Counted from the whole stretch's first letter, positions 2,307-57,480 are shown. The stretch is DNA of 57,999 bases, filler included, from Moniliella sp. 'wahieum' (GCA_003971905.1; 3 parts of 3 records of this genome joined end to end with filler, not necessarily neighbours in it); one strand, 5' to 3'. Program-made: numbers and translations. Notes: generated by a model not told the origin, from the sequence alone.

Positions 2307-2432
2307 GATCGATGATCGAGATGATCGTTAAACTTCAACGTTCAAGTTCAACGTTCAACGTTCAACGTACGTTCAATGTTCAACGTTCAACGTTCAATGC
2401 TCGAGCGCTGAGCGCGCTGAGCACATCTGAGC
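2307..2432. repeat. 7-bp-period palindromic repeat cluster (TGATCGA, TCAACGT x~9, TGAGCGC)
   Basis: gatcgatgatcgagatgatcg...ttcaacgttcaagttcaacgttcaacgttcaacg...gagcgctgagcgcgctgagc. Confidence 0.9.
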
Positions 2433-3743
2433 CGCTTACAAGTCGTGCTATCGACTGCCCGTCTTCTTCCGACCTTGACATGACACTCCACAACCAAAAG
2501 ACCTTGTAAGACTAGGAGAGAACATGCCATACAGAACCCATACTGTAACACAGCACCAACCCCATCACCACCTGCAGCGCCCACTTTCGTCACTCCCGTG
2601 TATCCTCCACTGCGGCAATATGTCAACCGCCCACCGTCCAGGCCCAAACGGCCCTTTTTGAGAAAATGCCGCATTAGAGCAAGAGCGCTGGCTGCTGGCT
2701 TCACTTCCACTAACAAGAGCAGGTGCGCATCTTGCGAACACCAAACTTGGGACGGATGCCACTCGTGTACAGATCGCCGTTCTCAGCTGCGAACACCTTG
2801 ACACACCCTGTGCCACTGCTCCAAGCGGGTCGGATCCGTCGCACGGCCCTCGGCACTAGCATCGACAACGAAAAGGCACGCTCTGTCGGGTCCGCCACAG
2901 AACGTGTTGACATTCAGCGTCTCCCAGCTTATATAGCCTTCTGACGAAATGGCCGCCCCCGTCGCAGGACCATCGCAATCGGTACCGCTGCCGCCTGGCT
3001 CTCGAGCGACTGTGGATCACTTCCCCCAGCCCTGCACGACCGAGTCAAAAGCACGAGTTGGATAGATGCACCTTGACCGCCTATAAGTTGTACCGTATCC
3101 CAGGCATCTTGGACGCCGCAAAGCGCGAAAAACAAGCCCTGATAACAATTTGTCTACTAGAGAGAGTAGTAGTCTTGTATCCAATCTGAAGGACCACATT
3201 GCGCTCTTCCGAAGGCGAATGTCATCGACGGACGGGAACAGCCACAAACTCTTCAACAGGCTCGACGCAGGACGCGTTTACACAGTACGATACAGTTGCC
3301 AAAAGGTCTTCGGCTGAAAGGAGCATGCCGGCAATGGTATAATCCGAGAAGGTAGAGGCGAAAGGATCGACAAAAACATAGGAACGGGTGGTTGTCTAGC
3401 TGGCTGCACGATTGCAGGAGGGAGGCTTGCTGAGTCGTGTAATAAGGGGCAAACAGTTTTTCTGAGCTCAAGGGAGCGAATGACCGAGAATATGTCGAAC
3501 AAGGACACGTCCACACCCAGAGCTGCTTTTGGCTTGCATGTAGAGAAAATAGGACGAAGAGATTGATACACCTTCTCTTCGTAGCTCATATTCTCCACCC
3601 CTTCGCGGCCTCCTTCCTCAAAGGATAACTCCAAGGAACCAATGCTTCTGCAAGTCAGCTTCAGTTGCTTAATAACTCAGTCCTTGTTATTGGGTTAACG
3701 TGGTTAACCCTGACCGCGTTGGCCACGTTGACCACACGTTTAA

Positions 3744-3914
3744 AACGTTCAACGTTCAACGGCGGTTCAACGTTCAACAGTGAAGCTTGAAGCTTGAAGT
3801 TCACTTCCGTACTCAATATTAGCGCTCATCCTGAGCGGAGCGTCAGCCGCTCAGCCGACTAGCTGACTCCTCTCTGAGATCTGACTAGTGGCCGGTGACC
3901 GGTGACCGGTGACC
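3744..3914. repeat. 7-bp-period palindromic repeat cluster (TCAACGT, TGAAGCT, TGAGATC/TGACTAG, TGACCGG)
   Basis: aacgttcaacgttcaac; tgaagcttgaagcttga; tgagatctgactagtg; ccggtgaccggtgaccggtgacc. Confidence 0.9.
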
Positions 3915-4238
3915 AGCAGCTCTTTCAAGGGGCCATCGATATTCGATGGCGGCCACAGATGTGCTAGAGTGCGACTTGGGAGCACTCGCGATCCTATGGA
4001 TCAGCTGCAAAGCAGCCTTCAGACAAGGCGTGAAGGCAAAGTGGTGAGCCACAGTCTTCAAGCAACGTCTGAAGGGAAGGAAAGGAGAGAAAAGAAGGGA
4101 GATGGAGCGAGCAGGGCGTGCGCGGCCTGCGAGCGGAACGCTTCCGCTCGGCTAGGCGAGTGTCACGATCCATTGAGGGCCGCGCAGGAGAACCCTAGCA
4201 GTACCCTCTAACAAGATGGTCATGCGGCCATCGAAGCG

Positions 4239-4348
4239 TCATGCGCGTCATGCACCATGCACCATACATCATGCATCATGCATCATGCATCATCGCGCAA
4301 CACCCCAGCTCAATTTGACATGTGACGTGCACGTGACATTTGACATGA
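4239..4348. repeat. 7-bp-period palindromic repeat cluster (TCATGCA, TGACATG)
   Basis: tcatgcatcatgcatcatgcatca at 4269-4292; tgacatgtga at 4316-4325. Confidence 0.85.
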
Positions 4349-5303
4349 AGGGCACGACAGGGCCCAGCAGGGTCCAGCCCGGCTCGGCTTGATGCCCTGA
4401 TGAGGCGGCCAGACTTGGCCTGCGTAGCCTGGCTTAGCTGTGTCACGGGCGGGCGCCGCTAGGGGGCCCGCCCTGGGGTTTTTGGGGTACAATCCCTTAG
4501 GCGACGGTAGGTCGACTCACGGTAGTTTCGGGCTTAGGCTGGTTGGTGTGTCCGAGCGGAGCTAGGGACGAGGAGAGGCCTTTGGTGGGGCGGCTGCACG
4601 TGAGGCAAGGCTGCGTCTGCACCGGCTTGGGCCGTAGTAACGTGTCTGAAGCCTCCGGGACTTAAGGACGGAGGAGGCAGCGGCGGACAAACACTGCCTT
4701 AACTGGGACTGGGAATCGCCGCGACCGAAGGAGGGCTCGCGCGATTGGACTGACGAAGGGCTGGAGGACGAGATCGGAGGAGATGTCGGGCGCTAACAAG
4801 AGGAGCTGCCTGTACTGGATCAATTGGCTGGAAAACGGGCAGGAGTCGGACAGGATAGGCGGGAAAGGGACGAAGGTGGAGACGAGATGACGAGAATGGA
4901 AGGTGGGGGAAAAGATCCCATCAACCAGGGTACAGGCAGGATCAAAAGGGAAACGGATACAAGAGGGGGTGTAGAAAGGAGGACATGTCAAAGCGGGGTT
5001 GGTCGCCACAGGCGCGACCGAGAAAGGAAACGGAAACGGGGACGGGACAGCAGATGCCGCCACGGCACTGGAAGCTCGGTGGCCTTATTAGGCCGGCCGA
5101 CTTGGACTTGGGCGGGGGCGACTATTGTCGCGCGGAGCATGGCCCTTCGGCCACGATACTTAATTTAGCCAACCATCATCACACTTGGTTGGCCTGCGGA
5201 GCACGCTCTACTGGGCATGTTCGGAGCAGGCGGGCCTTAGCTTGGGTCGGACCATCTCGTGTCCGCCGCAGCCCGTGACAAGCTGCCTCATCACATTGGC
5301 GGC

Positions 5304-5362
5304 TCAGTGCCTCAGGGCCTCAGTACTCGGTGCGCTCAGTGCACTGAACTCAGTACTCAGTG
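5304..5362. repeat. Degenerate 7-bp-period cluster (TCAGTAC, TCAGGCC-like)
   Basis: tcagggcctcagtactc...tcagtactcagtga. Confidence 0.7.
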
Positions 5363-6382
5363 AGTGCGGTTCGGTGAATACGGAGGGAGGACGGAGGACT
5401 GAGCGGATGACTAGATGACTAGGACTCTGGATGAGTTGGACAGCCCACTCAGCGTGTGGTTGCCAGATCCGGATGGCTGACTGGCCTTGGCTGGCTGGAC
5501 TGTGGTGCTGATGCTGGTGCTGCTTGTGGAGCGCACAAACGGGGCGGAGCGTGGTGGAGCAGTCCAGCAACAGAAATACGCCGCGTACTGTGCTGTTACG
5601 TGGCGCGGGTGACGTCACTTTGGGGGTAGAGAGGCGCAGGGCAGGACAGCGACAGCCCAGGGCTCTTGGCCGATGGTCGATGGGGGGCAGATCGCACAAT
5701 GCCCACCGTTTCCGGCCTGCAGATCTTGATCGCGGCGGAGGCAACGAGCAGCGGCTGGAGCCGAGACTGGGCGGGTGCGGGCCGCGGGTACCAGCCTGCA
5801 CCAGACCAGCAGCAGCCATTATAATGTTTAATCATGGATCTTTTAACTTCTTCACCGATCGTGTCGGGGGAGACAGGGCCTAGTGCCTCGCAGTGCCTCT
5901 GGTAGTGTCGGAGGCCGCGAAGGCCTCAGCGCCTCAGCGCCGCGAAGTACGAAGTACCCTATGCACCCTGGCGACGCAGGGCGCGTCCAGCGCTGCACTA
6001 GGCCCACAGGACCCCACGCATGCGTACGTACGCGGGGACGCAGGACGCATGCGATGTCCAACACGTTTTTCTGCGACACGTCGGCAGGTACACTGCCCGG
6101 AGGCGGGACCACCCCACCTGATGAGACAGCCCAGCCCCCCGTCCATCCCCCGATGGACACGCACTGCGCCAGTCGGCGCCGCTGCCCGCAGCACCAGCAC
6201 CCCTGCAGCACTCCGCCCGGCGGGGGGATGGGCCGGAGTATGCAATGGGATGCAATAGGACGCAATCGGACGCAGTACGACGCAGTAGCAGGCAGTGGGC
6301 TCCCACGCGTCCCACCCATCATAAACACCCTGTCTGACCATCCACACTCGGCCCTGCGAGGCGCTGCCAGTGCCTGAGGGCG

Positions 6383-9126
6383 ATGGCTCGGCTGCAGCGC
6401 GTCTGCATCGAGCAGCCCTCTTCAAAGGGCGGGGTTCAACGTTCACGCCGCGCCCCATATTCCAGGCCCCTGCCCCTTCCTCCCCGCCACCACCACCTCG
6501 CCCCCCTCCATGCCTGGCGCAGCATCGCTCCCCCCGATGCGACCGCCGTGCCCAACGCCTCCCCCGGCCCCCTCCACTCCCGCCCCTCCCGCCCCCCTCC
6601 ATCTGAGCCTGCTCGGCCTCGCCCGCCCGCCCGCCCTCGCGCCGAGCCCCGCCTACTCGCCCCCGCCGTCTCCTCTGCTCGCGCCACCAGCCCTCCACTG
6701 CGCCCGCCCCCACCAGCGTCCTCCAGCACCTCGCTCGCCAGGTCGCCTCCCGCGCCTCCACCGCGCCGCCCGCAATGCAGCCGCCATCCTCCTCGCCCGC
6801 CTCGCCTGCCCTGTATGTGGAGAGGCGCTGGAGAACCCCGTCACACTCCCCTGTGGCCATTCCGCCTGCGCCACCTGCCTCGTCCCGCCGACCAACCGTT
6901 TCGCCCTTGATCCTTCCTCCCGCCGCCAGCCCCGCCGCCACCCTCTCTTGCGGCCCTCGCTTCCCTCCCACCCGCCTCCCAACATCTTGGCCCCTCTCCC
7001 CGTTCGCCCCAACCGTGGCCCCCTTCGTCCTCTCCTGACGATACAGGCAGCGTGGATATTGCTCTTCTTCATCTCTCACCGCCACCGGTTCCACCAGCAG
7101 CTCGGGCCGAAGCAGTTTTCTCCCCCGCCTGGCCGCCTCGGCCCTGCGCAGCCTGACGTTGAGGTCGGATCCCACTCAGAGCCACAAGCACCCGTTGCTG
7201 CTACCGCCCCAACCTCCTCCAACCCAACCTCAGCCCTGAGCCCAAGCCCAAGCTCACGTCCAAGTCCAACTTCAAGCCCAGATCCAAACCCTCGCTTTCT
7301 CTCCTGACCACACGGTCGCCCAGCAAAAGCGGCAAGCGCCTCAGTCGTCTTTTCCGGCGCGCGCCGCCGCAGTTCCACCGTTTCCTCCACTTCGCAACCT
7401 AGGCCACGCCTCTTGACCCGCCCCGTCTACCGCGTCCGCAAAGCCTCTCACCATGCCCGTCGTGGTTGGGTTGCACACACTGTACCACTCTCCTCCACGA
7501 CCGTTGCCTGCCCCGTGGATGCGTGCCCGCGTTCAGTCTTGGGACAAGGCGTAGGTGCTTGGGTTAACCGTTCCATTCGCTACACACTCCCCTCCCTTTC
7601 CTCCTCCTCCCGGAATCTCCCCGTAAAAGTGGAAGAAGACAGGTTGGGCTGGGGAGTGCCTCCTTCCCTTGATCATGCCGCGATGCCGCGATCATCGCGA
7701 CAGTCCAAAAACCCCATCAACTCAGGATTTGGCTAGGCCACCCCGAATCGGCAAGCAGCCTGCACCTGGTCGAACCCCATCGGCGTAGCCGCCGCCGCGC
7801 GTGCCACCATTCGAACCCTGGGGGCTGCGCTTCCTCTATCCTGCCCCTGTCCCATTCTACCCTTGGTCGCGCTTTGACATCCGGTGCCATCACGGCCTCC
7901 CGGACCGTTCCCTCAATAGGCGTGGCAGATGGGGTGGCGGACAATTGGAATCCGGCGTCTGCACCCCCTCCTCTTCACCGAGGGGGATCCCCGTCCCCGC
8001 CTTGGTTCCAGGCGAGCTCCGGTCTGCCTGCTGACACTCTCCTTCCCACATGCTCCGACTCCTCGGCCTCGTCCAACTCCGAGAGCACGTCTGCCTCCCC
8101 AAGAGAGGGTGGCTTGCCCTGGTTGCGCAAGCCTCTCTCCGTCTCAGCCCACTCGCTTCCTGAGCCAAGACAGATCGCTCGGCAGGCCTTTAATGTCGAC
8201 ACAATTCTGGCTCAGCTGATTAGGTTGTTGCAAGCTTCATCGCAGGGTACCCCGTCTGTGGCAGCGCGCCCTTCTCCTCTCAGTCCGCAGGACAGTGACG
8301 TATGTGCCTCCCCGTACCGGGTCAGGACTGGCGACAGCAAGAGGGAGGGCGAACCGAGTCCCAAGCGCATTCGTATTGCTTCTGCCTCGGCTTCTTATTC
8401 TGCTTCCACTTCCGGCTCGGGCTTTGACCAAACCAGCCGCCCAGCTGTCCTGGGATGCTAGGCGTAGAAGGCACCAGTCTTTCCGGCCTGCGCACATCGC
8501 TTCTTACCCTGCTCATTTGCCCTCTTCGCGGCCATCTGCTCGCCCGTCCCACCTGTCTTCCCTGCGGCCACACTTTTTGCCGTGACTGTCTGACAGGCCA
8601 CCACACCTGTCCCATCTGCGCCCGCCCCCTCCCGGCACAGGAGTGGATCCGTTCGCATGAGCCCACCCAAGCGCTTGAAACGGTGCTAATGGCCAACTTT
8701 GAGGTCCCGCTGTTGGAGCAGCGGGCTGAGACAGGGATACAGACCAGCGGAAACATCGAGCAAGACCCCGGCCCATTCTTGAGTCGCAACGGTGACACTT
8801 CTCTACCTGGCCAAGCTGTTCCGGCCGCGGTGCCGGTCCCCCCATCGCGTCCCCACCTGCTGCGGAACGATTCGGACCCGTTGCGCCTGGATGGTTCGGC
8901 TGTTGCCGCACCGGCGACAGCGCAGCCACACGCTCACGTTGGGTTGGGTACTACGGGGTGTGACCGGACGGCACTGACGCCGGCTGCGCAAACGGCTATC
9001 TTGGATGCGCTGGTGGCCAGGGCACGGTGGGCGCCCAGCTGCTTGCTGGATCCTTCCGTACCCATCCTTCCTTTTCCCTCGCAGCCGAGTACGAACAGAG
9101 GCTGGCCTCGTCGTCGTGACGCGTAG
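6383..9126 (+). CDS. Tandem RING-HC zinc-finger protein, probable E3 ubiquitin ligase (LONRF-like architecture)
   Basis: RING1 LACPVCGEALENPVTLPCGHSACATC with a distal CPVDAC near 7508; RING2 LICPLRGHLLARPTCLPCGHTFCRDCL..TCPICARPL; long P/S-rich linkers; start, end and any LON domain uncertain because of frameshifts. Confidence 0.65.
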
Positions 9127-17433: not shown

Positions 17434-18323
17434 GGATGCTGGACCAGGTACCGATTAGTAGGCGCTCACGGCAGCTGAGCGGGCCGAGTTGTGGTTTTGA
17501 TTGTTTGTTGGCGTGTGAGTTACTTTGACCTAGTGGGTTGCAATGATTCGGTTCTTGGTTCCTCCCTGGACTGAGGTTGTGGGCCCCGTAGGTGAGCTTC
17601 TTCGTGTGGAACTACCGGTTGTCGTCATGAGCTGTTGGGTACGAATGAACAACACAGCACCGTTACCGAACCAAACAGATCCTACTCCATTTGCCCATAG
17701 CACTGCAGGTGTTGACCGATAATTGAATGGTGGGAACGAAATAGCGAGACATACTACTAGGCTGAAAGATGCTAATGATGAGATCGATGAGATGCACAGT
17801 TGCTATAGATGCCAAGTAAAGCTTGCCAGCAACTCTTTTAGGGCGACGCACGCCTGCCCCATTGCTCGAACTAACCACCGCGCGCAACAATCGCCAGCGC
17901 CGTGGACCCAAAGCACCGCTCAAAGAGCGTCTTCCACTGGCACCGCCCGTTTCCCCGCCCATTTCCAGCACAGAAACGCGCAAGACAGCCTGCTATGCGT
18001 CCTCAACTTGTTCCCTTGGCACTTGAGCTTGGATCAGGGAGAAAAAGCAGTACGGTAGGGTGTGGTTCTCATGCATTCATACACGTCGACAGGTGCCTCG
18101 AAGAATGAAAGTATCAAACATACTACCCTAACCCCTCCAGACAGCCTAGACATATGTTCATTGATACATCTGGTATGAGTGACCGATGAAACGATCACCG
18201 GAGCCTAGACATATGTTGTCAGCATCAATTGGTGATTTTCAATTTGAAATCGGCCACCACCTTGTTTGAAAAACGACTAGGTGAAGAATCGCGAGCCCGG
18301 TTGGTGAGAATCGTACAAGCTCT

Positions 18324-19447: not shown

Positions 19448-19481
<34 letters not shown>

Positions 19482-21258: not shown

Positions 21259-21292
<34 letters not shown>

Positions 21293-21314: not shown

Positions 21315-21369
<55 letters not shown>

Positions 21370-26770: not shown

Positions 26771-28126
26771 GGGGGCGCTGGTCACCTGACCTGACCCACC
26801 CCGGTACGTCCTCGCCAGATTAAACACCTCGCAGCAAGCAATGGCAAGTTCGGAGGACCATTATAAAGGCGTGGATTGAGTCTTGGCAGTCTTTTGTCAC
26901 CAGGTTGTGTTGATGAAGAACGGGACGCGCATCTGCAAATTGCCTCGCAACCCCGAGGAAAGAGGGTCAGGCCTGAGGCTGTGCGACCTGCAGGATGAGA
27001 AGCTGTGCGTGCTGATTGTCCCTCGTGATGTGCTTGGTCACGGTGCTCGCCTCTCTCTGGGCTTACCGACTCAGGATGGGCATGCAGATACCTGTATGTG
27101 GTTCATATCCTTCTGCGGTAGTCCAAGTTACTGGCATTTCGCATTGTGGTGAGTAGGCGGCTCGACCCGTCAATGGCACCATCAGGACTCTATTGAGAGC
27201 ATGGCGCGGCCCGGAAATGGTGAGGCTAATACACAATCAGGCTGGTGACCAAGCCCTGGTAGATCGGACGAGGGGCAGGATGTGCTCGTCCACTGTTCGG
27301 AAGGTCTTGCCTATGAGGCGTGTTCTTTTGGTTGATGACGCTGGCTAGCGCCTTGAGTGACCGTGCTAACGGGCTCCCTGCCCGTTAATTAGTACCTATC
27401 CTCCCAAGCGGCCTGCATGTAATGCATGAGATCTAGAAGGCTAGCCATACCACACACATCTATATTCAGTCTCACCCCAGTCCATCCGATTTGTAGCACT
27501 GATCGTACTGATCTCGGCGTCAATTTGCCACAACGGCTCTTAAGTTGATCTGCGTTTTATGTTCCAAAAACTGCGCTCTCGCTCGCTACCCCATGCAGTA
27601 CTGTCTTGGAGCCTTGATCAGGTAGTAGGGGGGCACGCCTGCGTCTGATGTCGAGGAGAATGGGATGCGCACATTCCTTTCTTCAAGAGTGAGCCTGGGA
27701 CGTGCCTGGCAAACCTCAAGCTGGGTGGGACTGTCGCCCATGAGGATGGTCACCGACCATCGGTCATGCGCATGTGGCCAGCGCATGAAGCTCTTCGTCT
27801 GCTTCAACCTGGCCGTTTGATTGTGGCCGTTTCCACCACGATCCCGTTGGCTTGCTATAATCGCACCGAACACCAAACGCACAGTATGAAACATCACATA
27901 TCCAGGGTCCGTTCTGAAACCGAAAGCACCAGTTGAGCTGCAAGGCGGGCAGGGAAGGAACGGTCGAGAGAAGAGAGAAGGCCATTGGGCAAACAAGAAG
28001 GAAGTAGTCTATCAGAAGATGCAGGAACCGGAGAGGCAAGCAACGTCGTGTAGCGGCCAGCGCGACGTTGCCGAAAGATAGGTAAATAGCGGCGGGACCA
28101 ACCGTCTTCCCCCACCTGTTGGCGGC

Positions 28127-29163: not shown

Positions 29164-29189
29164 GGTGACCGGTGACCGGTGACCGGTGA
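29164..29189. repeat. (TGACCGG)n 7-bp palindromic repeat upstream of PAL1
   Basis: ggtgaccggtgaccggtgaccggtga. Confidence 0.9.
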
Positions 29190-30943
29190 GTGGCCTTCGC
29201 CGGCCGCCGCCCACGCACAGGGGCAGTGCCTGCGGGACTATGCACCATGACTTACTGGGATGGCAGGGTGCCCTGGCCTGCACTGGCCGACACTGGCCAA
29301 GCTCGGTTGCTCACAGTGCACAACACGTAACGCGCCTCACGCGCCATGCACCATGGCCAGCCCGATGGGAACCCTAGCGGTCTCGAGTGGGACACATGGG
29401 CGCATTCGCCAAGCTTCTAGCTCTGTCGCTGCCCATCCTGACGCCACACGCCAAGTGACAACCAATCGACAGCTCCTTGCTACGTCGGTGCCAAGCCCCC
29501 ACAAGTGCGTCATCCCCACCGCACAAATCCAGAAAGGGGACAAGGAAGAGAAAGAGCGGGGAAAGCGGGATGGGGGGCTACGGGACGTCCCCTCTTGTCG
29601 AACTCCGCCATCTGCCCACATCCAAGACTGGCTGGGGCACAGTAGGTAATGTACAATGGTGCATGATCACAACACAAAGACCGTGTCCATGGTTCTCACA
29701 ACCAAGACGCGCTGCCAGCGGGGAGGGGGAGGACTGAAGCCGCCGCATCGGGCGTAACGCTTGCCTTGGTAGCCAGGATTGAAGAACCGTCGCATGATTC
29801 CCGCCGGGTACGGCGCCTATGACGCCAAAACTTCGCCATGACGCGCATGACGAGGCGGACAACCGATCTTGTCTTTGATGGGCGTAGTACCCAGGCCAGG
29901 CCGCCCCCTCAGCATTTCAGGATGCCCGATCCCTCGGCGGGTCAAGGCTTGGCTCTTGGGAACTTCCTGCTTTCGGGCGTAATTAAGGATGGATCGAGGG
30001 TTAGCTGGAAATTGGAGCTGGGAGACTGGAATGGGGGGAGACGAAACAGGGAGAGAAAGCAATGCCTGAAGTGATCCATTGAAGGAGGAGGAGGAGGAGG
30101 CACCAATGGGCCATGGGGGAAACCCATCTATTATGATCAGGTACGGGCGAGTCCAAAAGGGCACAACACAGTAGAGGGGACGGGGTCAAGACAAATAGGG
30201 GGTTGGGAGTGGCCACCGAGAAGGAAGACTTATCGCGTACAGTAGCAACGGGCAACCTACATTGATTTCCAAAATCGGAACTCTGCGCGACTTCAGACGA
30301 GCAGGCAAACAAGTAGAAACGCTTGGGCTCCGCTAAGCTCATTACTAGGCCATCTTCACCGCCGCAGATAATAAGCAGCACTGCAAAAGAGTGCATGGTC
30401 TTGGTTTGCACGACCCTTCGTCTGTCGTCTGTCATTGGAATCGACACGTTTCCGGCATCATGATTGAAACCCTCTCCTTGTGGGCACCCTAACTGATCGA
30501 AATGTGGTGAGAGGGGTTACTACGGGCTTAGTGTGGCCCAGCCGCCCCTGTAGTATGAAGTTGGTCATTTGTCCTTGCTGACGCAAGTTCGTTGGGCGCA
30601 GCGCTGGCACCCTCGAGGATGAACGGTTGGTGCCGTGCCTCCGACTACCTAAGCTTGCAGAAGGATGAGTGTCGACACCATCTACGGAGGTGTGTGGGGC
30701 CACAGTAGAGTGAGGGAGAGACAAAAGTGTTTTGAAGCTGATCTCGTTCATCTCATCTGCGCCTGAGCTGGACAAGGGTGGCCGTTGTCTCAACATTTCA
30801 AATCCCGGGCGGAACTCGGGGCAGGCGGCATGCCACCAGCGGGCCATTCATTCCGCCCCGCCGCAACCAGCTGATCTGTTCCTCGGCACAAACATGGGAT
30901 CAAAGGGATCGCGCTGCGGTTTCAAGCTTGCACCACCACCGCC

Positions 30944-44051: not shown

Positions 44052-46590
44052 AGCGAGAGTGGGAGGGAGGGGGAGGGGGGGAAGGGGAGAAGAGGGAGAG
44101 GGAGAGGGTGGAAGGGAAAGAGGGCGGGAACGCGGGCGAGGGACAAGGAATGGGGGCGGCAATAAACGAATGGGGTCGGGCTGGCGGCGAGAGAAGGCAG
44201 AGGCAGGTTGGACTTGGGAGGGCACAGGACGCGAGCCGATTAATGGTTAGACGTCGTCGCAAGCATACGTAGCCAATATAATGCCTACCCGCTAGCACGC
44301 CAGCCAGTGAGACCAGGACGCAGAAGGCGAGCGTCAGCGGTGGGGGTGTCGACGGCTGATGGCGGGAATTGGGTGTGGCATGTCGATAAGATAGAACTGT
44401 GGCTGCCCAGCGCTTTTTTGGTCACGTGCCAGCGATAAAACTTTATTAGCGCGTAGCAGCAGCGAGGCGCTCGGGGACGAGAGCGGAGGAAGCACACTCG
44501 AGCGCGGCCGAGGAATCGAGGCAGGTAGGAGGCGTATCACATGCATGTCACATGCCACTGCCTGCGGCAGGCTGCGACCACCTGGCCCCAGGCACACACG
44601 CCGTCGGGTTGCGATGGACCAGCTGTGCGCTGCCGGCCGGGTGCCTGGTGCGCACCTCGTCCCATTGCGTACCTGCCGCCTGCGCCACTGAGCACTGGGC
44701 CACTGCCTGCCCCTGCTCCACCGCCCCATTCACTGTTGCATCTCTCGGCTGATGCTGCCGGCCTGACCGGTCAGGTGACCGTCACCTTAGGGAGCCTGTA
44801 CCCGCGTGTGCCTGGTCGAAAGCACACGTGCCACAATACTCAAATGTAATATTACCTACCCATTCAGGCTGCACTCGCGCCAACATCCAGCTGGCTCTCG
44901 CCAGGCTGACACTGGTACTGACCATCACTAGGCGGCAAGCACCAACTGGAGCCTACTGAGCTTGGCTACGCTGAGCCTGCCGGCGCCGACGGACGGCACC
45001 GCTCATCGTCGCCATTGTTGCTTCTGTCCTTGCGATGGTCACCGTGGTTTTGCTGACCGCTCCGACAGCGCCCATGCGCCAGGGCGCAAAAAGGCAGGTC
45101 CCGCCATGGCTGGCGCCAATGACTTCGATGGGACTTTTGCCTCTGCCCCCGCGTCGCTGTTCACACAGTCACGGCAAATGGAGGGTTACGCTTTACGGCG
45201 GCCGATGAGGGCGAGTAATGCAGTAGTGGTTAATCCTGATACCCACAGACCAGTCCCTTGCACTGCAGAGGTATGGAAGAACGAGGACACGTTGGCCTGC
45301 CGGACGGCCCACTGTAGAGGGGTTCTTGTGCCCCAACAGCCAAGGACAGGCGCACGGTAACAGGGATACAGGGAAGACACGCCTTTCTGTCTCCCTATTC
45401 TGGGAAAGCACTACCACAGCTCTTCCATTTCCTCTCAACATCACCAGGTATACGCCCACAAACGGACCCAGTTCTGACTTCCCGCCAGCCGCCCACATCG
45501 GCCAGCGCTTATATTCCCCTAGAGGCTGCGGGAAACCACCTACCAAGACTTGGTCCGCTCGACCTTCATTCTTAACGTACTCGCCGCGAACGCTCGTTCC
45601 GATTCCGGCACAGGCCGCACTTCGCTTCGCCCTTCCCAAGCCTCCCACCAACTTGCTTGTTAACGTCACTGTGGGGTTGCCCGAAAGCCTTTTGTCACCT
45701 CCGCTGCCTCGCCCAGGCGGGCTACTGCTTCCATCCCTTCCCCTAGCCTACAAAATGGGAGGCGGACATTCACGGCGGGGGTATATCATGCAACCCTTTT
45801 GCAAACTAGCCCCGGCGCTTCCTTATTGCAATCTGTAAAAGACGTACTCTGCTCGCAAGACTCGCTGGGTGCGTTCAAGATGGCTGAATGTATCAGCTCC
45901 ACACCTCAGCGCCGAGGCTGCAATGTCCTCCGGCGTGAGGCACCCGCTCTTGTACCCCCCATGAAAACACTGTCCTGAGTCGAGCTTCTTGTGGCTGCTG
46001 GGCATTGGCGCCTTATCACGCCGTCCAGCTACCCTTGCTCATCGACCTCACCGGTCTCATCCACCCGCCCATCAGTTGCCACTGGTCCCAAGGTCCAGAC
46101 AGAAGCACAATCACGCGTAACCAGGCGTAATCACGGCGCCTAGCCGGCGGTCTTTTCTCTACTTCGAACAATGATGCGTGCGGATGCGTGTGGACGGACG
46201 CACCGTCGCCATCTGCCCCCTTGCGTGCACAGGCCAACAAGGGCAGCGTTGAACGTTGAACGGTTGAACAACCAGCGCGGGCGTACGCTTCAGCCTGCCG
46301 GAAAAACTACCTCACGACGGCCCTAAGTTTACAGCCACGTCCCCACCCCACACGAGGCCGTTGGGACGAGGTATTAAAGTAGCCTCGCCACCACCGTGCG
46401 CCCATGGCCGTAGAGGTCGGCATGCGCGCAGGTGCACCCAACCCTACAATTCGGCCCGCCAGCAGCTTGTAATCGATAATCTCCGTATCTATCACCGGTA
46501 TCACCGATGATGCCATCCCTGTGCACGCTTGTACTGACAGCACTGATACTGCCACTGGCAGCTGCTTCCCACCACCGTCTCCTCCGCGCC

Positions 46591-49253: not shown

Positions 49254-49496
49254 GGCTGTGGTGGGAAGGGTGGGCGCACCCAAGCCGAAAAGCTAGGGGA
49301 GGCGAGCAGGACAAATTAATTGATGGGACTATTCCGCGCCTGCTCGGTGCAATGATGACGGAAGAGCCACTAGCGCCGTGCAGGGTCGCTCTCGATTCCG
49401 CCCGGCCACGCTGTTTCACTCTCCAAAAAGTTGAGCGCGCCGCCGCCAAGGCGGATGCAGTGCCCATCTGTCCCCCACACCACGCAACCACGAGCG
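49254..49496. promoter_or_regulatory. Putative bidirectional promoter between LCP5 and ESF1
   Basis: 243 bp between two divergent start codons; no motif confidently assigned. Confidence 0.6.
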
Positions 49497-51847
49497 ATGG
49501 CAGGCAAGAAAGGCGCTGGTGACGACCGCTTTGCCCGTGTCCACTCTGACCCGCGGTTCATCCGTCCGCAGCGGGAAGAGGGCCAGGTCAAGCTCGACGA
49601 ACGCTTTGCGCATCTCCTCAAACCGGGGCAGAAGGGCGGCCAGAAGGGCAAGAAGCAGGCTGGGCCCAAGGTCGACCGCTTTGGGCGGAAGGTCAAGGCA
49701 GGCTCCTCGGCTGAGACTGCCCATCTGCGCGCCGCATTTACCGCGTGGAGGACGATAAGGTTGCTTCTGGCTCGAGCGATGAGGAGAGCGATGAGGAGAG
49801 CGACGAGGAGAGTGACGATTCGGAGCCGGCCAGGCCCGACTACGCACGTGGTGAGGCGATGCTCGAATCTTCTTCGTCAGAGGAAGAGTCCTCGGACGAG
49901 TCCGGCGGAGTGAGAGTGATGATTCGGCCACGGGATCAGTGGTGCTGGGCACTCGCCAGGCCTTGCGGGATGCTAAGAAGCGTGCTGCCGGTGCTGCGTC
50001 GGATGAGGATTCCGAATCCGAGTCTGATGAAGAGGAAGGTCCTGTCCCGGCTGATGATGGCGAGGGGCTGGATGCCCGCGCCTACTCTGCTGGATAAGCA
50101 GGCTAAAAAGCAACTTTCACGCGAGAAGAAGCGCAAGGACGCTGTGCCAATGGGCGATCGCACTCGTCGGCTAGCGGTGGTCAACATGGACTGGGAAACC
50201 TTCGTGCGGTTGACTTGTATGCCGTCTTTGCCTCTGTCGTACAACCATTGGCCTCGGTGGCTTCCTTGACTTCGAAGGAGGAGATCAAGGGTAAGGGTAA
50301 AGGCGGTGCAGCACTTCGTCAGAACCGTGGCCAGTGTATCCGGGTTCGGATCTATCCTTCTGAGTTTGGCCGGCAACGGATGGCCAGGAGGACAGGTACG
50401 GCCCTCCTACGATATCTTCAAGGGTGACAAGACGGAAGCGAGTCGTTCCAAGGCTGGGAAGAGCCGAGCAGAGGACTCGGATGATGAGGCTGGTCCGGCC
50501 GGGTTCCAAGAAGATGAAGGTGCTGAGTTTGATGAAAACAAGTTGCGTAAATACCAACTGGAGCGGTTGCGCTATTATTATGCTATTGCCGAATTGATCG
50601 GAAGCTCGGCCTCCATGGTTTATGACACGATGATGGTACCGAGATGGAGGCGTCGGCCAACGTGTTTGATCTCCGCTTTGTTCCCGATGACATGGAGTTC
50701 CCTTCTTACCCCCAGGCCCGGCTGACGCTGCCGATGCCCAAGATAAGAGCGATGGGTACCGCGACAAGCTACCGAGGCCGACTTGATGACCAAGTACACT
50801 GGCGTTGACTTTAAGACGGACGTGCGTATTTTCACCTCATCTGTGTAGGCATGGGCACTAACTTGTCTTTTGTACAGGCACTGCGGCATTCCCGCGTCAC
50901 ACTCACTTGGGATCAAGATGACAGCCAGCGGACCAAGATCACTCGTCGGCGGGTTGGGGAGCAAGAGCTGGCCGAGGAAGACTACAAGGCGTATTTGGCC
51001 TCGGACACTGGCTCAGAGGGAGAAGAGGAGAAGGAGACCCAGGCAGATGCCGAGGAGGGGGCCAAGGACAAGAAGGCGAGCCGGATGCGCAACCTTCTCC
51101 TTTCAGGACTTGACATGAACAAGTCCAAAAAGGGACGCAAGGACCTCTCTGGCCACGGTGGGGACATGGATATGGAAATCACGTTTACTCCTGCTCTTAC
51201 CTCCAAGCTCTCCTCGGAACCTGTACGGTCACACGTCTGCTACGGACGCCACAGAGAAGGCGACCGATGGAGAGGAGAAGGAGGAGACCACACGAGAAAA
51301 GTATCTGCGCAAGCAAAAGGAGAAAGCGCGAGGCGCGGATGGCCAAGCTGGTCGAGGCTCGCACGGCCAAGGAGGCTCAAAAGCCGGAATCAGACGAGGA
51401 GTTGCCCGCCTCTTTGGCTGGCGAAGATGGTGGGGTGGGCTTGGGTCACTTCTCGATCCAAGATATTGTTCGTGCGGAGAAGGATAAGATGCGGGCAGGC
51501 AAATTGCGCGGCAAGGCCAAGAAGAAGGCGGCCGCCCGCGCTGAAGCTGCTGATCAAGCGGAGGGAAAAATTCAGCCGGATTTCCACGTCAATCCCGAAG
51601 ACGAGCGGTTTGGTGCACTCTACACAGACCACCAGTTCGCCCTCGACCCATCTCATTCTTCTTTCCGCAAAACCGAGGCGATGCAAACCCTCGTCGACAC
51701 GGCAGCCAAGAAACGTCGCCAAACCGAATCCGAGGACACTCCCCGCGAGTCAGGTGGGAAGGACGATTCGGCTGCGTTGGTGCAGCGTCTCAAACAAAGG
51801 GCTACCCCGGTCAGCGGCCAAGCAAAAGACAAAAGCAGAAGGCCTGA
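49497..51847 (+). CDS. ESF1: Pre-rRNA processing protein Esf1 (NUC153 domain)
   Basis: DDRFARVHSDPRF; DYARGE; TRRLAVVNMDW; VRIYPSEFG; KLRKYQLERLRYYYAIAE; FDLRFVP; ALRHSRVTLTWD; DMEITFTPAL; DERFGALYTDHQFALDPS; stop approximate. Confidence 0.93.
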
Positions 51848-52059
51848 TTGGGCTCCTGTCTGCGTGGGACGGGTCATGTATCGGAAGACAGCAATCATTT
51901 TCATCTTCCCATCATATATGCCCCCAAATGAAGGGATTTTCCACTGGACGCGATGAGTCTGACACGACTGGCTTTTTATAGTTCGCATCATGATGGGTGA
52001 TGCGTGTGCTAGTACTCCGTCCTTTTCATTGACAGAGCTTAAGGCTGGGACAGGGGGAA

Positions 52060-53430
52060 CGCTACGTCTAAACCTAACCGTTCACTGTCTTGCGGGGGTT
52101 ACTTGGGGGCGCCACCAGGGTCAAGGGACCAGGGGGATCGCCAGGATATCAGGACCCTCCGGCTCTCGCCATCCGGTCCCGTACCCTAGGAAGCGCGTGT
52201 GGACACGGAGGAACGTGGTTGACATCCGAGCGAGGAACCATTTCCACTGAGACTTAGTAGCCAACTCCTTCCAATGCGCGAACAACGTGCCCGCCGTCTT
52301 GGTGCCGTAGTATCCTCGCGTCGTCAAAACCAGGGGGAAAAAAACGGTTCTTGAGTGCGTCCCTGGTACTTGGCGTTCTTGTCGCATTCTGCTTGTTCAA
52401 GCATCCGAAGCAGCTCCTTCTCCCGGCGTTCCAAGGGGGTTGCGGTGCTCTCATGCACCACCCTCCGGAACGCGCTCTGCGCCTCCTGCGATCCCGTGTC
52501 GCGCAGCGTGTGGTCTACCTCCATTCCGGTTCCCCCAGTGCTCCGGGCCCCATCACGCGGTAATCGGTGCGCGGGCCTTCCGTCCGCGCCTCGTCCCATC
52601 CTCTTCCTCCACCATAGGTTCGTTGTGGACGTGGGTGTCGGGGATGGAGCGTAGGAGCTGGAGAATGGGCCCGCACTGCCTCATGCAACGCACCAAACTT
52701 GGCCTGGGTGCGGGTGCAGGACATTGATGTTCCAGCGAGGACATGACGCCGCACTTGCACATGCTGCGCGTGGTGCGGCACAGCGTGCAGAGCTGGAGAC
52801 CAACCTGGACCTGCTGGTCAGAGAGCTTGAGGTACGGGACGGATGGAATGGCGGAGAGCCAGTTGTGGCTCAGCGGGTTGCTGTGCTCAACCACATGGCG
52901 ACCATCGGCAGCGTCCAGCTTCTGAAGCAGCTCCTGTCGACTTTGCTCCCACATTTCGCGGCAGCGCTGGCGTTACTTCGTAAATGCGTTGGCCGTAGCC
53001 GTTTGCGGTCCCGCTGGGTCAACTTAAGTGGTAATAAGATAGTCGTGACCTCGTTGGCCGCGGCACGGGCGTGGGGCGCAATATACGAGTAAAGCGGGCT
53101 GCACATCCTCCAGCCGGAGGGGCAGGCTCATGAGCATGTCGAAGTGGTCGTCCTTGGCACTTGGGGATCCTCCTCGCCCCGGATCCGTCTGAACTCCGTA
53201 CAGATGAAGGCATCAATCTCGGCCAGCACGTCGTCTAGCTCTCCTTCCATCTGCATGGTGCGGAGCAGGTGGCGCAGCTTGGTCTGAGTGCTGAGCCGCC
53301 ATAGTAAGAGGCGTCCCTGGCGGGTGATGCCATCAAACTTAGGCATGTTCTCCCTCAGACTGGCCAGTTGGGCCCGGAGCCACGATCGACGATAGTCTAC
53401 CCCTCCCACACAAGTGCCCAGAACCTGCAG
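52060..53430 (-). mobile_element. 5'-truncated non-LTR retrotransposon with restriction-like endonuclease (CRE clade, Cnl1/MoTeR/SLACS-like)
   Basis: End of RT GLQVLGTCVGG; thumb LLLWRLSTQTKLRHLLRT; NWLSAIP..LSDQQVQVGL; CKC..LEH..C knuckle; LHEAV, NEP, RTDY, EVDHT, K..KY, FFPLVLTTRG endonuclease motifs; RT catalytic core absent. Confidence 0.82.
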
Positions 53431-53627
53431 ACCATCTATGAAAACGCGACAGAAATGAGTCTGTTGTCATCAATCATCCATCATCAATCATCTGGCATCT
53501 CGTGAGGGTACAGCCATGTATGGCGTTTCGCAAAACATGCGACGTAGGGTGTGGGGGGGTGAAGAGGAGGGGGGGGGGGGGGCTGACCCTGACCAGTGAC
53601 CTGCGTACGCTAGCGGTCAGGTCATCT

Positions 53628-55493
53628 TCACTTCGAAGATTTCGGTTCAGGAATGGGGGGCAGCGGGCCCACCGGCGGTGGCCCTGGGCGACTAGGGATC
53701 ACGCGTCTGGCCGAAATAAAGGATTGCTTGCTGCTTGTTTGGGAACGATGAATGGGAATGGGACGGTGGGCTGAGAGCAAGTGGAGACGCCCGACTTGGA
53801 GCAGGAGGAGTAGGACGAGCGGGATGCGGTCAGGCCCCGAGACGGAAGCCAAGCGATATAGGAGGAAACTTTTGCAGATCGAAATCAAGCAGGGAACTGG
53901 ACGAGTCATGGGATGCGATGCTCTGTGCCGTGCGGGACACGGGCAATACTCGGCGCCCGGCCATTCGCCGCACGGAAGGAGTAGCTTGTTCATTTCATGG
54001 GATTGCTGCTGAGGCAGGAGTTCAGGAGAAGACGCATCCGCTTCAGTCGCTTGTTCCCAAGGGGTGTCCTTCCGTTCTGGATCATGGGGCAAAGCGGTCT
54101 CCTTACTCGGTGGGGTCTTGTGGGGCCAAAGAACCTCACTGTGTTCGACCCCTTCGACGAAAGCGCCCATGGAAGAATTTCCATCATCGGGCGCGAATCC
54201 AAACATGTCCGTTACGGGAGAAGAGTGCCCATCACTCGACGCCCATGGTGTCGAGAGTTCAGAGTCTTCGAGGTCATGGGGAGGAAGAACGGTGTCAATG
54301 TCCAGATGGATGATGGAGTGGGGCGGGAAGGATGGTGCCGCCCCTTTTTCCATTGGTACCCGGGACTTGTGACACATTCCTTTGGGAATATGACTCACGG
54401 GCGTGCTCCTCCCTAGTGTGGGAGACGCAGAACCCAAATATGGTTCCTCCCGTTAGTTGAGGCTGGCAAGAGCGTTGTTGCTACTGAAGGTGTCGAAGCG
54501 AAGTGTGGGACATCTTTGGTAACCAGGAAGAGTAACATCCTTTGACAAAGCCAAAGGCGACAAAGGTGTAGGTCGTTGGTCACCCGGAAAGCTCAAGCTG
54601 CTGGCACGGAAGGAGAAATTGTTCCTGAACACAGGCGAAACTCTGCTAGGCCCCTGGGACAGACCAGCCCAACTCGTTGTGATATGAGTATCACTGGAGG
54701 AGGGGTTTGTGGTTAGCTCTGATCGCGCATGGGACAGAGATCGCCTGGTCCCAGCAATTGAGTTAGACAGAATTGAGGAGCCCAGGACGACGGTGTTTTA
54801 ATCTTGCCTCCATTTCTCCTGTGCTTTGATTCATTGGTCACCTCCATGACCTCATCCACAGACCGATGACGATTCAAGGGAAGGCCAGATTCTTGTGTCA
54901 GTGGCGACGACAGTGGAGGGCTGGTCAAATTTGTTCGGGAAGCAGGTGCGGAAGTCGGAGATGAAAATGTCGACGATGAAATGGCGGCAGGCGCTTTCCA
55001 CCATCGTCGGTAAGAACGGTGCTTGCCCCCTTTGGGCGTATCAGAAGCATCATCAAAGGAAGTATCCTCCAATGGAGAGTCGGGCAAGGTACGAGGAACA
55101 TCCCGACTTTTCGAGACATCCCAACCGGATCTCATGACCCATCCTACCTGGGAGTGGGAAGGAGGGTGGTTGTTTGGGAGTGTGTAGCATATGAGTCATT
55201 CGAAGGACTAAACGAGCCTGGTTCGCTCGAACAGCGAGGTCGGGGATGGTCACGGAGATGCAACCAAGTCGCTGCAAGTGCAACTGGAGGTGGCTTCCGC
55301 CGAGATGATGTACTGTTCGAACCGCCTGAAGTCTGTTGACCTGACTTTTTCGTCTCATTGAGGAGCCAGGTAATAAATTGTGGCTTCTTGAAGGGATTGA
55401 TCCCATTTGGACCCCCATCATCTTTCTTGCTTGGACGGAATGCGGCTGCATCATCATTTCTGGAACCACAGTGGACGAAAAGATGTTAGCCAT
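53628..55493 (-). CDS. Hypothetical Ser/Pro-rich protein
   Basis: Chain of frameshifted minus-strand ORFs (55053-55493, 54713-55135, 53628-54437) with consistent disordered composition; no domain recognised. Confidence 0.45.
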
Positions 55494-55919
55494 GAACTGA
55501 ATGCATATTGGGGCAGCTTACGTATCAACCCAAGAGATTTTGGGAGATAATGTATGTCTGTCGATGCCCGTGCACACCCTCAATGATACTTTTCAAGCAA
55601 CCCCTTCGTCAACAGGATGCCTCCGAGTGTGTGCAAAGGAGATCCAAGAGCCCTGCACAAGACTTTTATGGCGGACCACTGGAACGGGGAGAGGGCGTGA
55701 TGGTGGGTGGGAAGGATGGGGCAAGCAATTTTCCCCCTTCAGAGGGACAGACGGTAGTGCCCCCTTGACTGAGTCAGTTGACGATACAGACCCGATTGGC
55801 CAGCTATACACTACAGAGGAATGAAATTGACGGGGCCCATAACCCCTGTGTGGATGAGCGCGCAGCGATCATATCCACCCCCACCGACTGCGCGTCGGCC
55901 CAAGCTGCAGGTGTCGTCA

Positions 55920-57480
55920 CGAGTATCACATGTATGACCGTATTATGAGGCCTACGCGCCTACGGCCCTAAGGCCAATGGATGCAAAGATGGTGCACTTG
56001 TGATTCATGATGCCTGATGCCACCCTGGGACGCCTCACCGGTACTCATGACTCAGTTAACTCACAGGTCACGTGAGTGCCAGAGGCTTAGGCCGAACTAC
56101 GCGTGACAGCTTTTTTTGTTCGCAGGCACACACCCCTCCACTGCATCTCAGGCATTGCATGCTACACCCGGTACACTCAACAGAAACACTCTTGAAGCTT
56201 GATAAGCGATTGAATATTGAGGTCCAAAAGCACTCAGTACTCAGGACTCACAGGCTACATGCTATAGTGATAATACACGCTTGTTTGCATCCATAGATGC
56301 ATAGGGACAGCTTTTTGTGCGGCCGGGACAAAACCTCTCAGGCCTCTCAGGTGTACTAGATACTGGGACTGAGCCTGCTGAGCCCTGGGCCCGAATTCGA
56401 AGGTAGGGCAAAGTGATACCACGACTGATGTACTGAGTACTCGCTGAGTACTGACGGCCATTCTGCTAAAAACCGCCATCAGGGAGGTGTATAAGATCGA
56501 AGATGATCGATGTCGATGAAAGGCACAGTGTGACATGATAAACAACAGTAGGCAGCATACATCAGTGCATCAGGTACTCGGTACATCCAGCCCTTCACTT
56601 TAGCGTCACTAGTATAGTATTCACAAAAGTTCACTATGTCTGTAGTCGATCTCACATCCCTACAGTGCCGCTTGAAGTCACCCTAGTCACTTTTGCGTCA
56701 CCTCAGACACAGGCCTCAGGACCTGGCTATATAGCCACTGCAATATATTAATGCACTACAGGAACTGTCACATGTATAAGTCACACGTCACATGTCACAA
56801 TCCCGTCTTCCTGGGTCGCTTTTCCAACTAATGAGGTGGAGCGGAAGAAAGGACATCAGTGCATCAGCGCAATCTCAGCTTGTATATTGCGCATGTCACA
56901 TCACATGTCACACATGCCACATCCGAACCACTCTACTGGAAGCTTGAAGCTTGAAGGAGAGCGTCTCGAGGGTTTTAAGAGCACTTAGTACTTAGGCTCA
57001 ATCTTAGTGAGTTAGCGTTCAGAAAATGTCTGAACAAACAGAGGTTTGCACATATTTGCTACGCTTCAAATGGGGGGATGCACACAACGTCACATGTGCC
57101 ACGCATGCCCTACTCCTCTAGGAGGTAGCCACTATTACAATGAACGAAGTCCGTGTCGCATATTCCCGCTTAACGCCGTTTAGTAGCTACGTATAATCCA
57201 CGGCTGCTTACCAAGTTTTTCGTGATGGTCGGTCGCTTCGCCATTTCAAGCTGTGTGCCGTTTCAAGCTTGAACTTCAAGCTGCATGGATCTTTTATTGG
57301 TTTTCGATCGTCGAGATTATCGAGATCATCTTGCTTCTCATGGCCGTCCTTTGAGGGCCTGAGGCCTGAGGTTCAGGCCTGGGAGGAGGCCACAAAATGG
57401 CGCGGATTGAGGTGGCATGAAACTGCTTTAGGCCTGTGAACGGTCGCGTCAGTCGTCAGTGTATTCAGTGAACTCAGTTT
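55920..57480. repeat. Non-coding region dense in TCA/TGA-spaced palindromic heptamers
   Basis: tcagtactcaggactca; tgagtactga; tgatcgatgtcgatga; tcacacgtcacatgtca; gaagcttgaagcttgaag (56939-56956); tgagggcctgaggcctga (from 57352). Confidence 0.8.

Follow-up and report, generated by a model that had tools for sequence, protein, structure and literature searches.

The 7-base repeats of the window

The window, that is, the whole stretch of 57,999 nucleotides analysed here (filler included), comes from the smut-like fungus Moniliella sp. 'wahieum' and is composed of three assembly contigs joined by N-linkers. Each contig carries short repeats (Table 1) which, according to a previous sequence-only reading, consist of TCA or TGA alternating with a self-complementary tetranucleotide. 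All 20 coordinates looked up hold the repeats so described or close variants of them. The exact motif is defined here as TCA-P-TCA or TGA-P-TGA, P being a 4-bp palindrome. Eight of the 11 cores that had been listed occur in the window with an exact TCA/TGA spacer (ACGT, AGCT, CCGG, TGCA, CATG, GTAC, GGCC and GATC), but TCGA, GCGC and CTAG do not: the TCGA listed at 2307 and the GCGC listed at 2404 belong to 9-bp variants, and CTAG at 3875, TCGA at 56504 and one CCGG, at 44764, are imperfect or flipped copies. An ATAT core at 56211 had been overlooked.

Table 1. Repeats with a 7-base period and their variants in the window
Feature	Position
8-nt non-tandem scar tg-TCA-ACGT-G-TCA-ac, polymorphic with respect to the partner contig	1201..1215
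Cluster: 9-bp variant TGA.TCGAGA.TGA, ACGT array (GTTCAAC)n, 9-bp variant TGA.GCGCGC.TGA	2311..2422
Cluster: TTA 9-bp variant, ACGT array, AGCT array, GATC scar, CCGG array	3693..3914
9-bp variant, TGCA array (CATCATG)n, TGA-CATG-TGA motif	4237..4325
8-bp variants TCA.GGGCC.TCA and TGA.CTAGA.TGA, GTAC scar	5310..5420
8-bp variant TCA.GCGCC.TCA	5924..5938
Lone scar gt-TCA-ACGT-TCA-cg, core templated by the left flank	6434..6447
9-bp variant TGA.GATCGA.TGA	17777..17792
9-bp variant TGA.TCGTAC.TGA	27498..27513
CCGG array (GGTGACC)n, second contig	29164..29191
9-bp variant TGA.CGCGCA.TGA	29837..29852
ACGT motif, TAA-spacer scar tg-TAA-TCGA-TAA-tc, 9-bp variant TCA.CCGGTA.TCA	46248..46505
Dense cluster: AGCT, ATAT, GTAC and CATG scars, two 8-bp variants ca-TCA-G-TGCA-TCA, TTA-spacer scar	56191..56996
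GGCC scar/array, polymorphic with respect to the partner contig	57358..57371

Motif enrichment and genomic distribution

Outside its satellite, rDNA and telomeric parts, the window contains 30 exact motifs, versus 1.5 +/- 1.1 in 100 local dinucleotide shuffles. The excess depends on the palindrome, non-palindromic cores showing no enrichment (27 vs 22.4), and on the spacer, TCA/TGA ranking first of 32 trimer classes (z 26.6; the second reaches 2.6). The proposal that one grammar lies behind many different arrays is supported. However, the spacer is not constantly TCA/TGA, as had been assumed: TAA and TTA spacers are also present (46470, 56985), and the actual rule is T-N-A, with a middle base at background (C and G 0.39 each vs 0.37). 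In 590 kb of the genome (59 pieces of 10 kb), TNA-P-TNA occurs 506 times versus 20.3 in shuffles, and all 16 palindromic cores are found with a T-N-A spacer; non-palindromic cores are barely enriched there, and other symmetric spacers show no excess (ANT 15 vs 18, CNG 51 vs 70, GNC 65 vs 69). Genome-wide, ACGTTCAACGTTCAACGT gives 327 matches and the reversed control 5. No description of a T-N-A scar rule was found in the literature searched, in which subscription papers were largely absent.

The motifs are concentrated in non-coding patches, 77% of them lying in the top 10% of 500-bp bins, and only two fall in 33.9 kb of Pfam-matched frames, where 33 would be expected. Sequences free of scars were rDNA (2.6 kb), a retroelement (3.7 kb) and a satellite (3.9 kb). 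At least 120 metagenome loci with a long AGCT array were seen, at least 102 of them with one core; the maximum among those listed is three cores per locus, whereas this genome shows up to 10 cores per 5-kb piece. One shared transposon end was rejected as the source of the arrays, since the flanks of 10 ACGT loci are unrelated, overlapping loci excepted.

Flank templating and scar geometry

The two bases next to the array serve as template for the cores, which had been thought to vary freely: where the empty site reads ab-TNA-cd, the altered site reads ab-TNA-cd-d'c'-TNA-cd or its mirror form. For the 237 TCA motifs that are isolated and have two units, the first and second flank bases match the core in proportions of 0.64 and 0.62 on the left and 0.59 and 0.54 on the right, and the match falls to 0.32 at the third base; the flank match is found only on the left in 77 motifs, only on the right in 61, on both sides in 41 and on neither in 58.

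The geometry was counted in 790 kb at non-tandem sites only, with the tip two bases past TNA and two mirrored bases. In this way 272 rule-fitting sites were obtained versus 3.8 expected, and, these being impossible as tandem duplications, slippage is refuted as the origin. Extrapolation from 272 in 0.79 Mb gives approximately 24,000 non-tandem scars. Sites that reuse 0, 1, 2, 3 or 4 left-flank bases number 272, 29, 34, 2 and 0, respectively (expected 3.8, 0.9, 0.1, 0.3 and 0.0). The variants reuse no more than two bases of the flank on either side, so that the length of the duplicated unit is fixed at exactly 7 bp, to which two palindromic bases are added; the target sequence is found twice around the joint. 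An extended target motif beyond TNA was discarded, as it disappears after removal of neighbouring units.

Polymorphism between haplotype-like contigs

The arrays are the least conserved sequence between haplotype-like contigs. Indels of at least 5 nt amount to 57 in 4.8 kb near motifs versus 67 in 50 kb elsewhere, and their lengths peak at 7 nt (35 indels, vs 9 at 6 and 10 at 8). For instance, the CCGG array at 3892 is two units shorter in the partner contig (a 14-nt indel), the 8-nt unit at 5406 is missing from it, and several 7-15-nt indels distinguish the dense cluster of Table 1. Among the 58 indels with lengths of 7-11 nt, taken as unpolarised differences, 16 obey the rule, as against 0, 0 and 1 of 58 for three control centres. 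Six of these 16 are non-tandem and 10 are also plain tandem duplications, while the remaining 42 of the 58 fit no rule; four of the 35 seven-nt indels are tandem and off-rule. No pair of an element allele and a scar allele was found in 56 kb of aligned contig pairs, and in 27 copies of a solo LTR family (located at 4441-5280), considered as a recorder, none of 25 indels of at least 3 nt is a 7-nt scar.

A resident element family and other candidates

A resident family of 4.9-kb elements with ends CTCACTG..CAGTGAG carries T-N-A at positions -5 to -3 in 12 of 13 listed ends (background 0.038). The same position holds T-N-A in only 6 of 90 ends of an unrelated, CATAG-ended TIR family, which was rejected as the agent; this latter family shows 2-bp duplications in 9 of 12 pairs (read by eye), and its protein gave only a RAG1_ZnH2 lead and nothing in Pfam, PDB or a word-indexed search. 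In the CTCACTG family, five full-length copies are 97-98% identical, and an exact 7-bp duplication is present in four of five paired copies, copy L248 providing the full readout; in the fifth pair the flanks are mismatched. CACTG starts at the third base of the element end, and an 11-bp subterminal repeat array at the left end has inverted counterparts at the right end.

The coding region of the element is broken. No Pfam family was matched by 11 open frames and 12 read-through pieces of copy L248, and no credible protein match was obtained; one match, to a repetitive protein with 28-33 residues aligned, was dismissed. PF02992 has two genome matches, both outside the five full-length copies, and the element contains PMH and IAD words, which we take to be reminiscent of EnSpm motifs. 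Pfam searches of the genome, weak tests in a frameshift-rich assembly, gave 0 matches for MULE, hAT, KDZ, Harbinger, Mutator, DUF4218 and Plavaka, the profiles with 0 matches being PF10551, PF20700, PF05699, PF13359, PF13960 and PF18759.

The resident family shares duplication length and target with the scars, though its target spectrum is narrower: A or T adjoins TNA at 13 of 14 positions in its seven TNA-centred independent sites, versus 48% of templating scar flanks. Therefore, this family alone cannot be the scar source. It is also small (13 listed ends, about ten residents), and no such element was present in 1.0 Mb scanned; among the matches listed in a de novo search of about 1.0 Mb for inverted repeats with 7-10-bp duplications, no TNA-centred element appeared. 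The scars point to a transposon lineage with a 7-bp TNA target that lies outside all superfamily definitions tested here.

Proposed mechanism

The 7-base intergenic repeats are probably the accumulated excision footprints of a group of cut-and-paste DNA transposons with target nn-T-N-A-nn and a 7-bp duplication. Insertion, as seen at resident copies elsewhere in the genome, gives ab-TNA-cd, element, ab-TNA-cd. The scar geometry suggests that excision would seal both flanks as hairpins flush with the element ends, in the manner of RAG, Transib and Muta1, and that a host nuclease of the Pso2/Artemis type would then cut them open at 2 nt from the tip, so that palindromic overhangs of 4 nt, cdd'c' and b'a'ab, remain. 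A weak DRMBL match is present in the genome, and Artemis is described in PMC2175297 as opening hairpins mainly at +2, with 4-nt palindromic overhangs as the result. End joining would retain one whole overhang and usually lose the second, so that the site would lengthen by 7 bp, to TNA-cdd'c'-TNA or TNA-b'a'ab-TNA; where the second is not entirely lost and contributes one or two bases, 8- and 9-bp variants may arise. There are 0 sites with both overhangs retained whole, and mosaic joints, in which two overhangs are mixed patchwise, were looked for and are absent among non-tandem sites; one 10-nt indel between the haplotype-like contigs has both overhangs, joined over a shared T.

Since each scar would hold two fresh targets, arrays could grow in 7-bp register, a hit within an array adding one identical unit, and left-templated cores would be expected first and right-templated cores last. 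Among 26 core-switching chains, 18 match both flanks in this order and eight break it. Ordinary slippage probably contributes to long arrays.

Alternative explanations

Slippage microsatellites, favoured by hairpin-forming pseudo-palindromic 7-mers, would agree with the existence of plain 7-nt duplications and with the identity of neighbouring cores in 126 of 153 pairs, and, of three arrays from the window, two surpass their shuffles in folding (z -2.0 and -2.7) and one does not (z -0.1). However, ANT, CNG and GNC centres are expected to fold equally well and have no excess, and exact duplication, which the 272 sites rule out for themselves, fits array extension only. Slippage is extremely improbable as the source and is a secondary lengthening process only. 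It is likewise barely conceivable that, as the sequence-only reading offered as one option, the repeats are selected binding arrays for a factor reading TCA-N4-TCA. The restriction of the motifs to non-coding DNA would suit such arrays, but there is scarcely any enrichment of cores that are not palindromic, TNA shows no selection on its middle base, and the core tracks the flank and differs site by site; moreover, protein-binding arrays are unlikely because the repeats are indel hotspots, and the least conserved sequence, between haplotype-like contigs.

A host process without a transposon, in which a nick near T-N-A would be followed by a two-base fold-back and re-priming five to seven bases upstream, through template switch or synthesis-dependent end joining, is highly improbable. 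It could write the identical 5+2 string with no element required, and clustering in non-coding patches could mirror open chromatin. However, it would need a zero-loop fold-back, which is not known as a normal polymerase product. The return point has an abrupt limit at two bases upstream of TNA (34 sites, and 2 beyond it), which mirrors the tip and agrees with the TSD of the resident family. Of the mutational hairpin process suggested earlier, the mutational origin and the hairpin step are supported; rather than arising in a template switch at TCA, the hairpin was most likely formed on the flank by a transposase. The same kind of transposase, which could be domesticated, might act in a hit-and-run fashion: once strands had been transferred and gaps filled, the 3'-OH newly formed at each flank would attack the junction, releasing the element at once and leaving scars without stable insertion. 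RAG has reversal chemistry of this type. This very unlikely route predicts the same scars and would account for tens of thousands of them versus about ten residents, as well as for their wider flank spectrum, but stable insertions with the 7-bp duplication exist, and it is unnecessary if, as estimated, each element need jump only ~1e-5 to 1e-4 times per generation (from one scar per 100-300 substitutions, assuming a substitution rate of 1e-9 per base per generation). A broader reading also seems unlikely: a lineage of RAG-like transposases whose target is a 7-bp TNA site, largely hit-and-run or domesticated, would be a standing mutator of intergenic DNA and the main source of short tandem repeats here, adding one self-regenerating 7-bp scar for every 100-300 substitutions or so.

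Significance of the probable footprints

Target duplication, flank hairpins and P nucleotides are known parts; what is unusual is that tens of thousands of sites carry the same footprint, fixed and almost invariant. If the repeats are excision footprints, each recreates its own target, so that tandem arrays can be built without slippage, a distinct birth route for short repeats. The scars would constitute a large natural archive of fungal hairpin opening and end joining, map where the transposase could reach, and count past transposition independently of surviving copies. They also offer a concrete rule for re-examining the 10-bp 'footprint' repeats of Ustilago maydis.

Comparison with known systems

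Subterminal repeat arrays are characteristic of CMCT elements, and the resident element resembles these in its long subterminal arrays and in the CACTG inside its termini, but differs in its CT..AG ends and in its 7-bp duplication centred on TNA. The CMCT clade (EnSpm/CACTA, ESTA, Plavaka, Transib) is characterized in PMC12730594 by mostly CA..TG ends and 2-5 bp duplications. Flank hairpins are reported in PMC5499845 for Transib and RAG and also for the MULE Muta1, whose 43+43 nt hairpin is flush and which has subterminal repeats. However, the Muta1 TSD is 8-9 bp, versus 7 bp here, and more than 90% of its yeast excisions are precise according to the same source; such mostly precise excision with a TSD counts against the footprint model. 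As general features, MULE elements have a TSD of 8-10 bp, and PIF/Harbinger elements have a TNA target, a 3-bp TSD and TNA-TNA or precise footprints, whereas the duplicated unit here is 7 bp, and TNA-TNA footprints show no marked excess (508 vs 471 expected).

Footprints of the hAT elements Ac/Ds in plants, budding yeast and Candida albicans, as described in PMC5873905, share with the scars a target duplication and a flank-templated palindrome produced by hairpin repair. In that description, the palindromes have a one-base centre, the complement of the base adjoining the element; this single-base-centred class comprises 13 sites here, versus 3-5 in four shuffles, while the even-centred class comprises 272. 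The hAT7 elements of rust fungi have a 7-bp TSD (PMC12730594), a likeness in TSD length. The hAT dimerisation domain PF05699 had 0 genome matches in a weak test whose control also matched nowhere, and none in L248. The 10-bp repeats of U. maydis, for which PMC4081816, citing another paper, mentions an origin as TE footprints, are similarly numerous, tiny and intergenic, belong to a related fungal group and have been proposed as transposon traces, the likeness being one of description, without sequence, rule or mechanism.

Among the closest parallels to the proposed joints are the P nucleotides of V(D)J recombination (RAG hairpins opened by Artemis), for which PMC2175297 describes flush hairpins opened mainly 2 nt from the tip and 4-nt even palindromic overhangs templated by the flank. 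Unlike V(D)J joints, the fungal scars have ends that share a 7-bp duplication, are far more stereotyped, regenerate their own target and exist as heritable joints at tens of thousands of sites.

Motif grammar and abundance

The sequence-only reading had proposed that short repeats in the window alternate TCA or TGA with a self-complementary 4-mer. This enrichment is borne out, since the window holds 30 TCA-P-TCA or TGA-P-TGA motifs (P being a 4-bp palindromic core) against 1.5 in shuffles, and non-palindromic cores show no excess over shuffles. Eight of the 11 cores it had named occur exactly, the remaining three being variants. The spacer, taken to be constant, is T-N-A: in 59 pieces of 10 kb, chosen blind to content at round coordinates of 50-odd larger contigs, motifs with any T-N-A spacer numbered 506 against 20.3, all 16 palindromic cores were present and the other three self-symmetric spacers showed no excess. 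Both spacers within a motif are the identical triplet (middle bases C-C 242, G-G 185, A-A 48 and T-T 31; mixed pairs C-G 23 and G-C 30). The middle base is at background frequency and, therefore, the dominance of TCA/TGA reflects base composition only. Chains are mostly short, with a single core in 506 of 626. Two motifs lie within coding frames (33 expected), and none was found in an LTR retroelement, rDNA, a satellite and a 5.4-kb DNA transposon, despite 96-215 TNA sites in each. By extrapolation, there are about 68,000 motifs genome-wide, counting both haplotypes.

Geometry of the scars

The match between core and flank in isolated motifs spans exactly two bases, usually on one side. The scar count covered 790 kb, made up of the 59 pieces and a further 20 that are contiguous, and took in solely sites that could not have arisen by tandem duplication and had no prior symmetry in their flanks. 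For an empty target ab-TNA-cd, the main product is ab-TNA-cd-d'c'-TNA-cd, d'c' being complements, or its mirror (272 vs. 3.8 expected). Products that additionally reuse b (29 vs. 0.9) or ab (34 vs. 0.1) before the second TNA are also present; reuse then collapses, with two sites for three bases and none for four, and the palindrome tip seldom falls one, three or more bases past TNA. Therefore, the duplicated unit is exactly the 7-mer, with two mirrored bases added at its end. There is also a minor class with the second spacer inverted (34 vs. 0-4), which a single event does not explain. Non-tandem scars extrapolate to about 24,000 genome-wide, both haplotypes counted.

The same 5+2 rule is in weak excess at CCA/TGG (35 vs. 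5.3) and CTA/TAG centres (10 vs. 2.3) of the 790-kb sample, perhaps relaxed targets or mutated TNA.

Assembly, host and contig ends

The assembly comprises 69.5 Mb in 223 contigs, three of which, with N linkers, form the window. The top named fungal matches of one housekeeping protein are Tilletiaria, Tilletia and Jaminaea (84-85% identity), so the host appears to be a smut-like basidiomycete, as judged from this single protein rather than from a tree; a nematode-labelled record, at 74%, ranked above them. Collinear contig pairs of 87-95% identity suggest haplotypes. In 54.8 kb of alignment there are 600 one-base indels, and this assembly noise is probably the source of the frameshifts in several window genes. 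Other features are listed below.

Coordinates of resident elements and other features (window positions unless a contig of this genome is named)
Feature	Position	Observation
Solo LTR	4441-5280	AGCTG target duplication; missing from partner contig; at least 37 genome copies
Solo LTR, ~250 bp	3963-4213	AGATG duplication; missing from partner contig; contig C79 has another copy, lying within a CTAG scar
1.45-kb insert	51984-53433	Missing from partner contig; repeated end in many fetched pieces; no Pfam match; gives the impression of a truncated non-LTR-type element
Telomere repeats, TTAGGG-type	18777-18912	Close first contig and open second
5.8S/ITS2 and incomplete GC-rich LSU rDNA	18913-21486	Directly follows telomere, as if a chromosome end had healed within an rDNA unit
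40-bp satellite, ~96 copies	37492-41360	Unit changes along array from ...GATAGCGAGCTACC... to ...GATAGCTCGCTACC..., a local inversion within a palindromic arm
Piece related to 40-bp satellite	18700-18760
139-141-bp subtelomeric tandem repeat	18323-18719; 41347-41742	Embedded TTAGGG-like words; opposite orientation on its two contigs
Frameshift-ridden genes	12300-16300; 25900-26750; 30940-32500; 47900-51900	By eye like Mer3/HFM1-like helicase, photolyase, Rtf1, Lcp5 and ESF1; tool lead for ESF1 only
CTCACTG-ended copies	C29:72158-77127; C35:43991-48846	Same 9-base flank on both, at opposite element ends: either one site hit in both orientations or coincident targets
CTCACTG end	C8:478685	Preceded by ga-TGA-ag-ct
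CATAG-ended element (L017/L104)	C3:509279-514645	Young family; 90 ends listed genome-wide

Polymorphism between haplotype-like contigs

Scar formation appears to be still going on at the haplotype time scale. Indel lengths between haplotype-like contigs peak at 7 nt and, when the short allele is rebuilt from the flanks of the long one, the rule fits 16 of 58 unpolarised indels of 7-11 nt, six of them non-tandem (control centres 0, 0 and 1); clean non-tandem cases with an observed short allele number two. The other 42 indels fit no rule. In a 10-nt indel, ca-TGA-ACGTGCA-TGA-ac, both predicted overhangs are present with one T in common. Core-switching chains carry the left-flank match first and the right-flank match last in 18 of 26. 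No 7-nt scars were found among 27 aligned copies of the AGCTG-flanked solo LTR.

Resident transposon families

A de novo search of about 1.0 Mb did not turn up any element whose 7-bp duplication was centred on TNA. Pattern searches found a CTCACTG-ended family with T-N-A at -5 to -3 in 12 of 13 ends listed, against six of 90 in an unrelated TIR family; the pattern mostly misses ends with T as ninth flank base. The thirteenth end (C8) is preceded by the target plus two mirrored bases, as if one flank had hairpinned and then been rejoined without excision. The 7-bp duplication is exact in four of five paired copies (GATCATG, GTTGATG, CATCAAC and GATGATG), and the fifth pair has mismatched flanks. 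Three of the family's duplications are one and the same 7-mer. A sister end type agrees in three of four, two of these sharing a flank. The five full-length copies are 97-98% identical. One (L248) has 4,945 bp, inverted ends of ~78 bp and an 11-bp subterminal array; a solo LTR is nested within it, its coding region is broken and it contains one scar. Neither a Pfam family nor a credible homologue was matched.

The unrelated CATAG-ended family has 2-bp target duplications and forms of ~5.4 kb and 120-160 bp. Its protein carries a DxMH word and a high-scoring Atlas lead to RAG1_ZnH2; it is possibly an undescribed CMCT-type lineage.

In CTCACTG-family targets 13 of the 14 positions next to TNA are A/T, unlike in the scars, which therefore require sister families that are either past or unseen. 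The family is also tiny against the numbers of scars and motifs. However, by a rough estimate from 6-16 events per 1,741 substitutions (sequencing error included), with 5-10 elements and an assumed 1e-9 substitutions/base/generation, each element would have to jump about 1e-5 to 1e-4 times per generation; at so low a rate, few elements and many scars are no paradox.

Proposed mechanism and comparison with known systems

A 7-bp target duplication whose two flanks were sealed as flush hairpins and opened 2 nt off the tip would give the observed geometry. One retained overhang would yield +7, and one or two further bases of the second overhang +8 and +9. No excision events were observed. Artemis opens hairpins chiefly at +2, leaving 4-nt palindromic overhangs (PMC2175297), and flank hairpins are made by hAT, Transib, RAG and Muta1, that of Muta1 being flush (PMC5499845).

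The literature searched holds no account of this rule, nor of arrays made by iterated footprints, and no multi-core pattern appeared among the 120 metagenome matches listed with a long AGCT array. The 10-bp repeats of U. maydis have been proposed as TE footprints (PMC4081816). The CTCACTG element differs from both the CMCT clade and MULEs in target duplication and termini. With hAT7 of rusts it shares a 7-bp duplication (PMC12730594), a comparison on which the hAT7 targets may bear. Ac/Ds footprints are palindromes centred on one base (PMC5873905); such palindromes are few here (13 vs. 3-5), the footprint being even-centred, unlike that of hAT. The scar process works in the manner of a RAG/Transib-type excision footprint.
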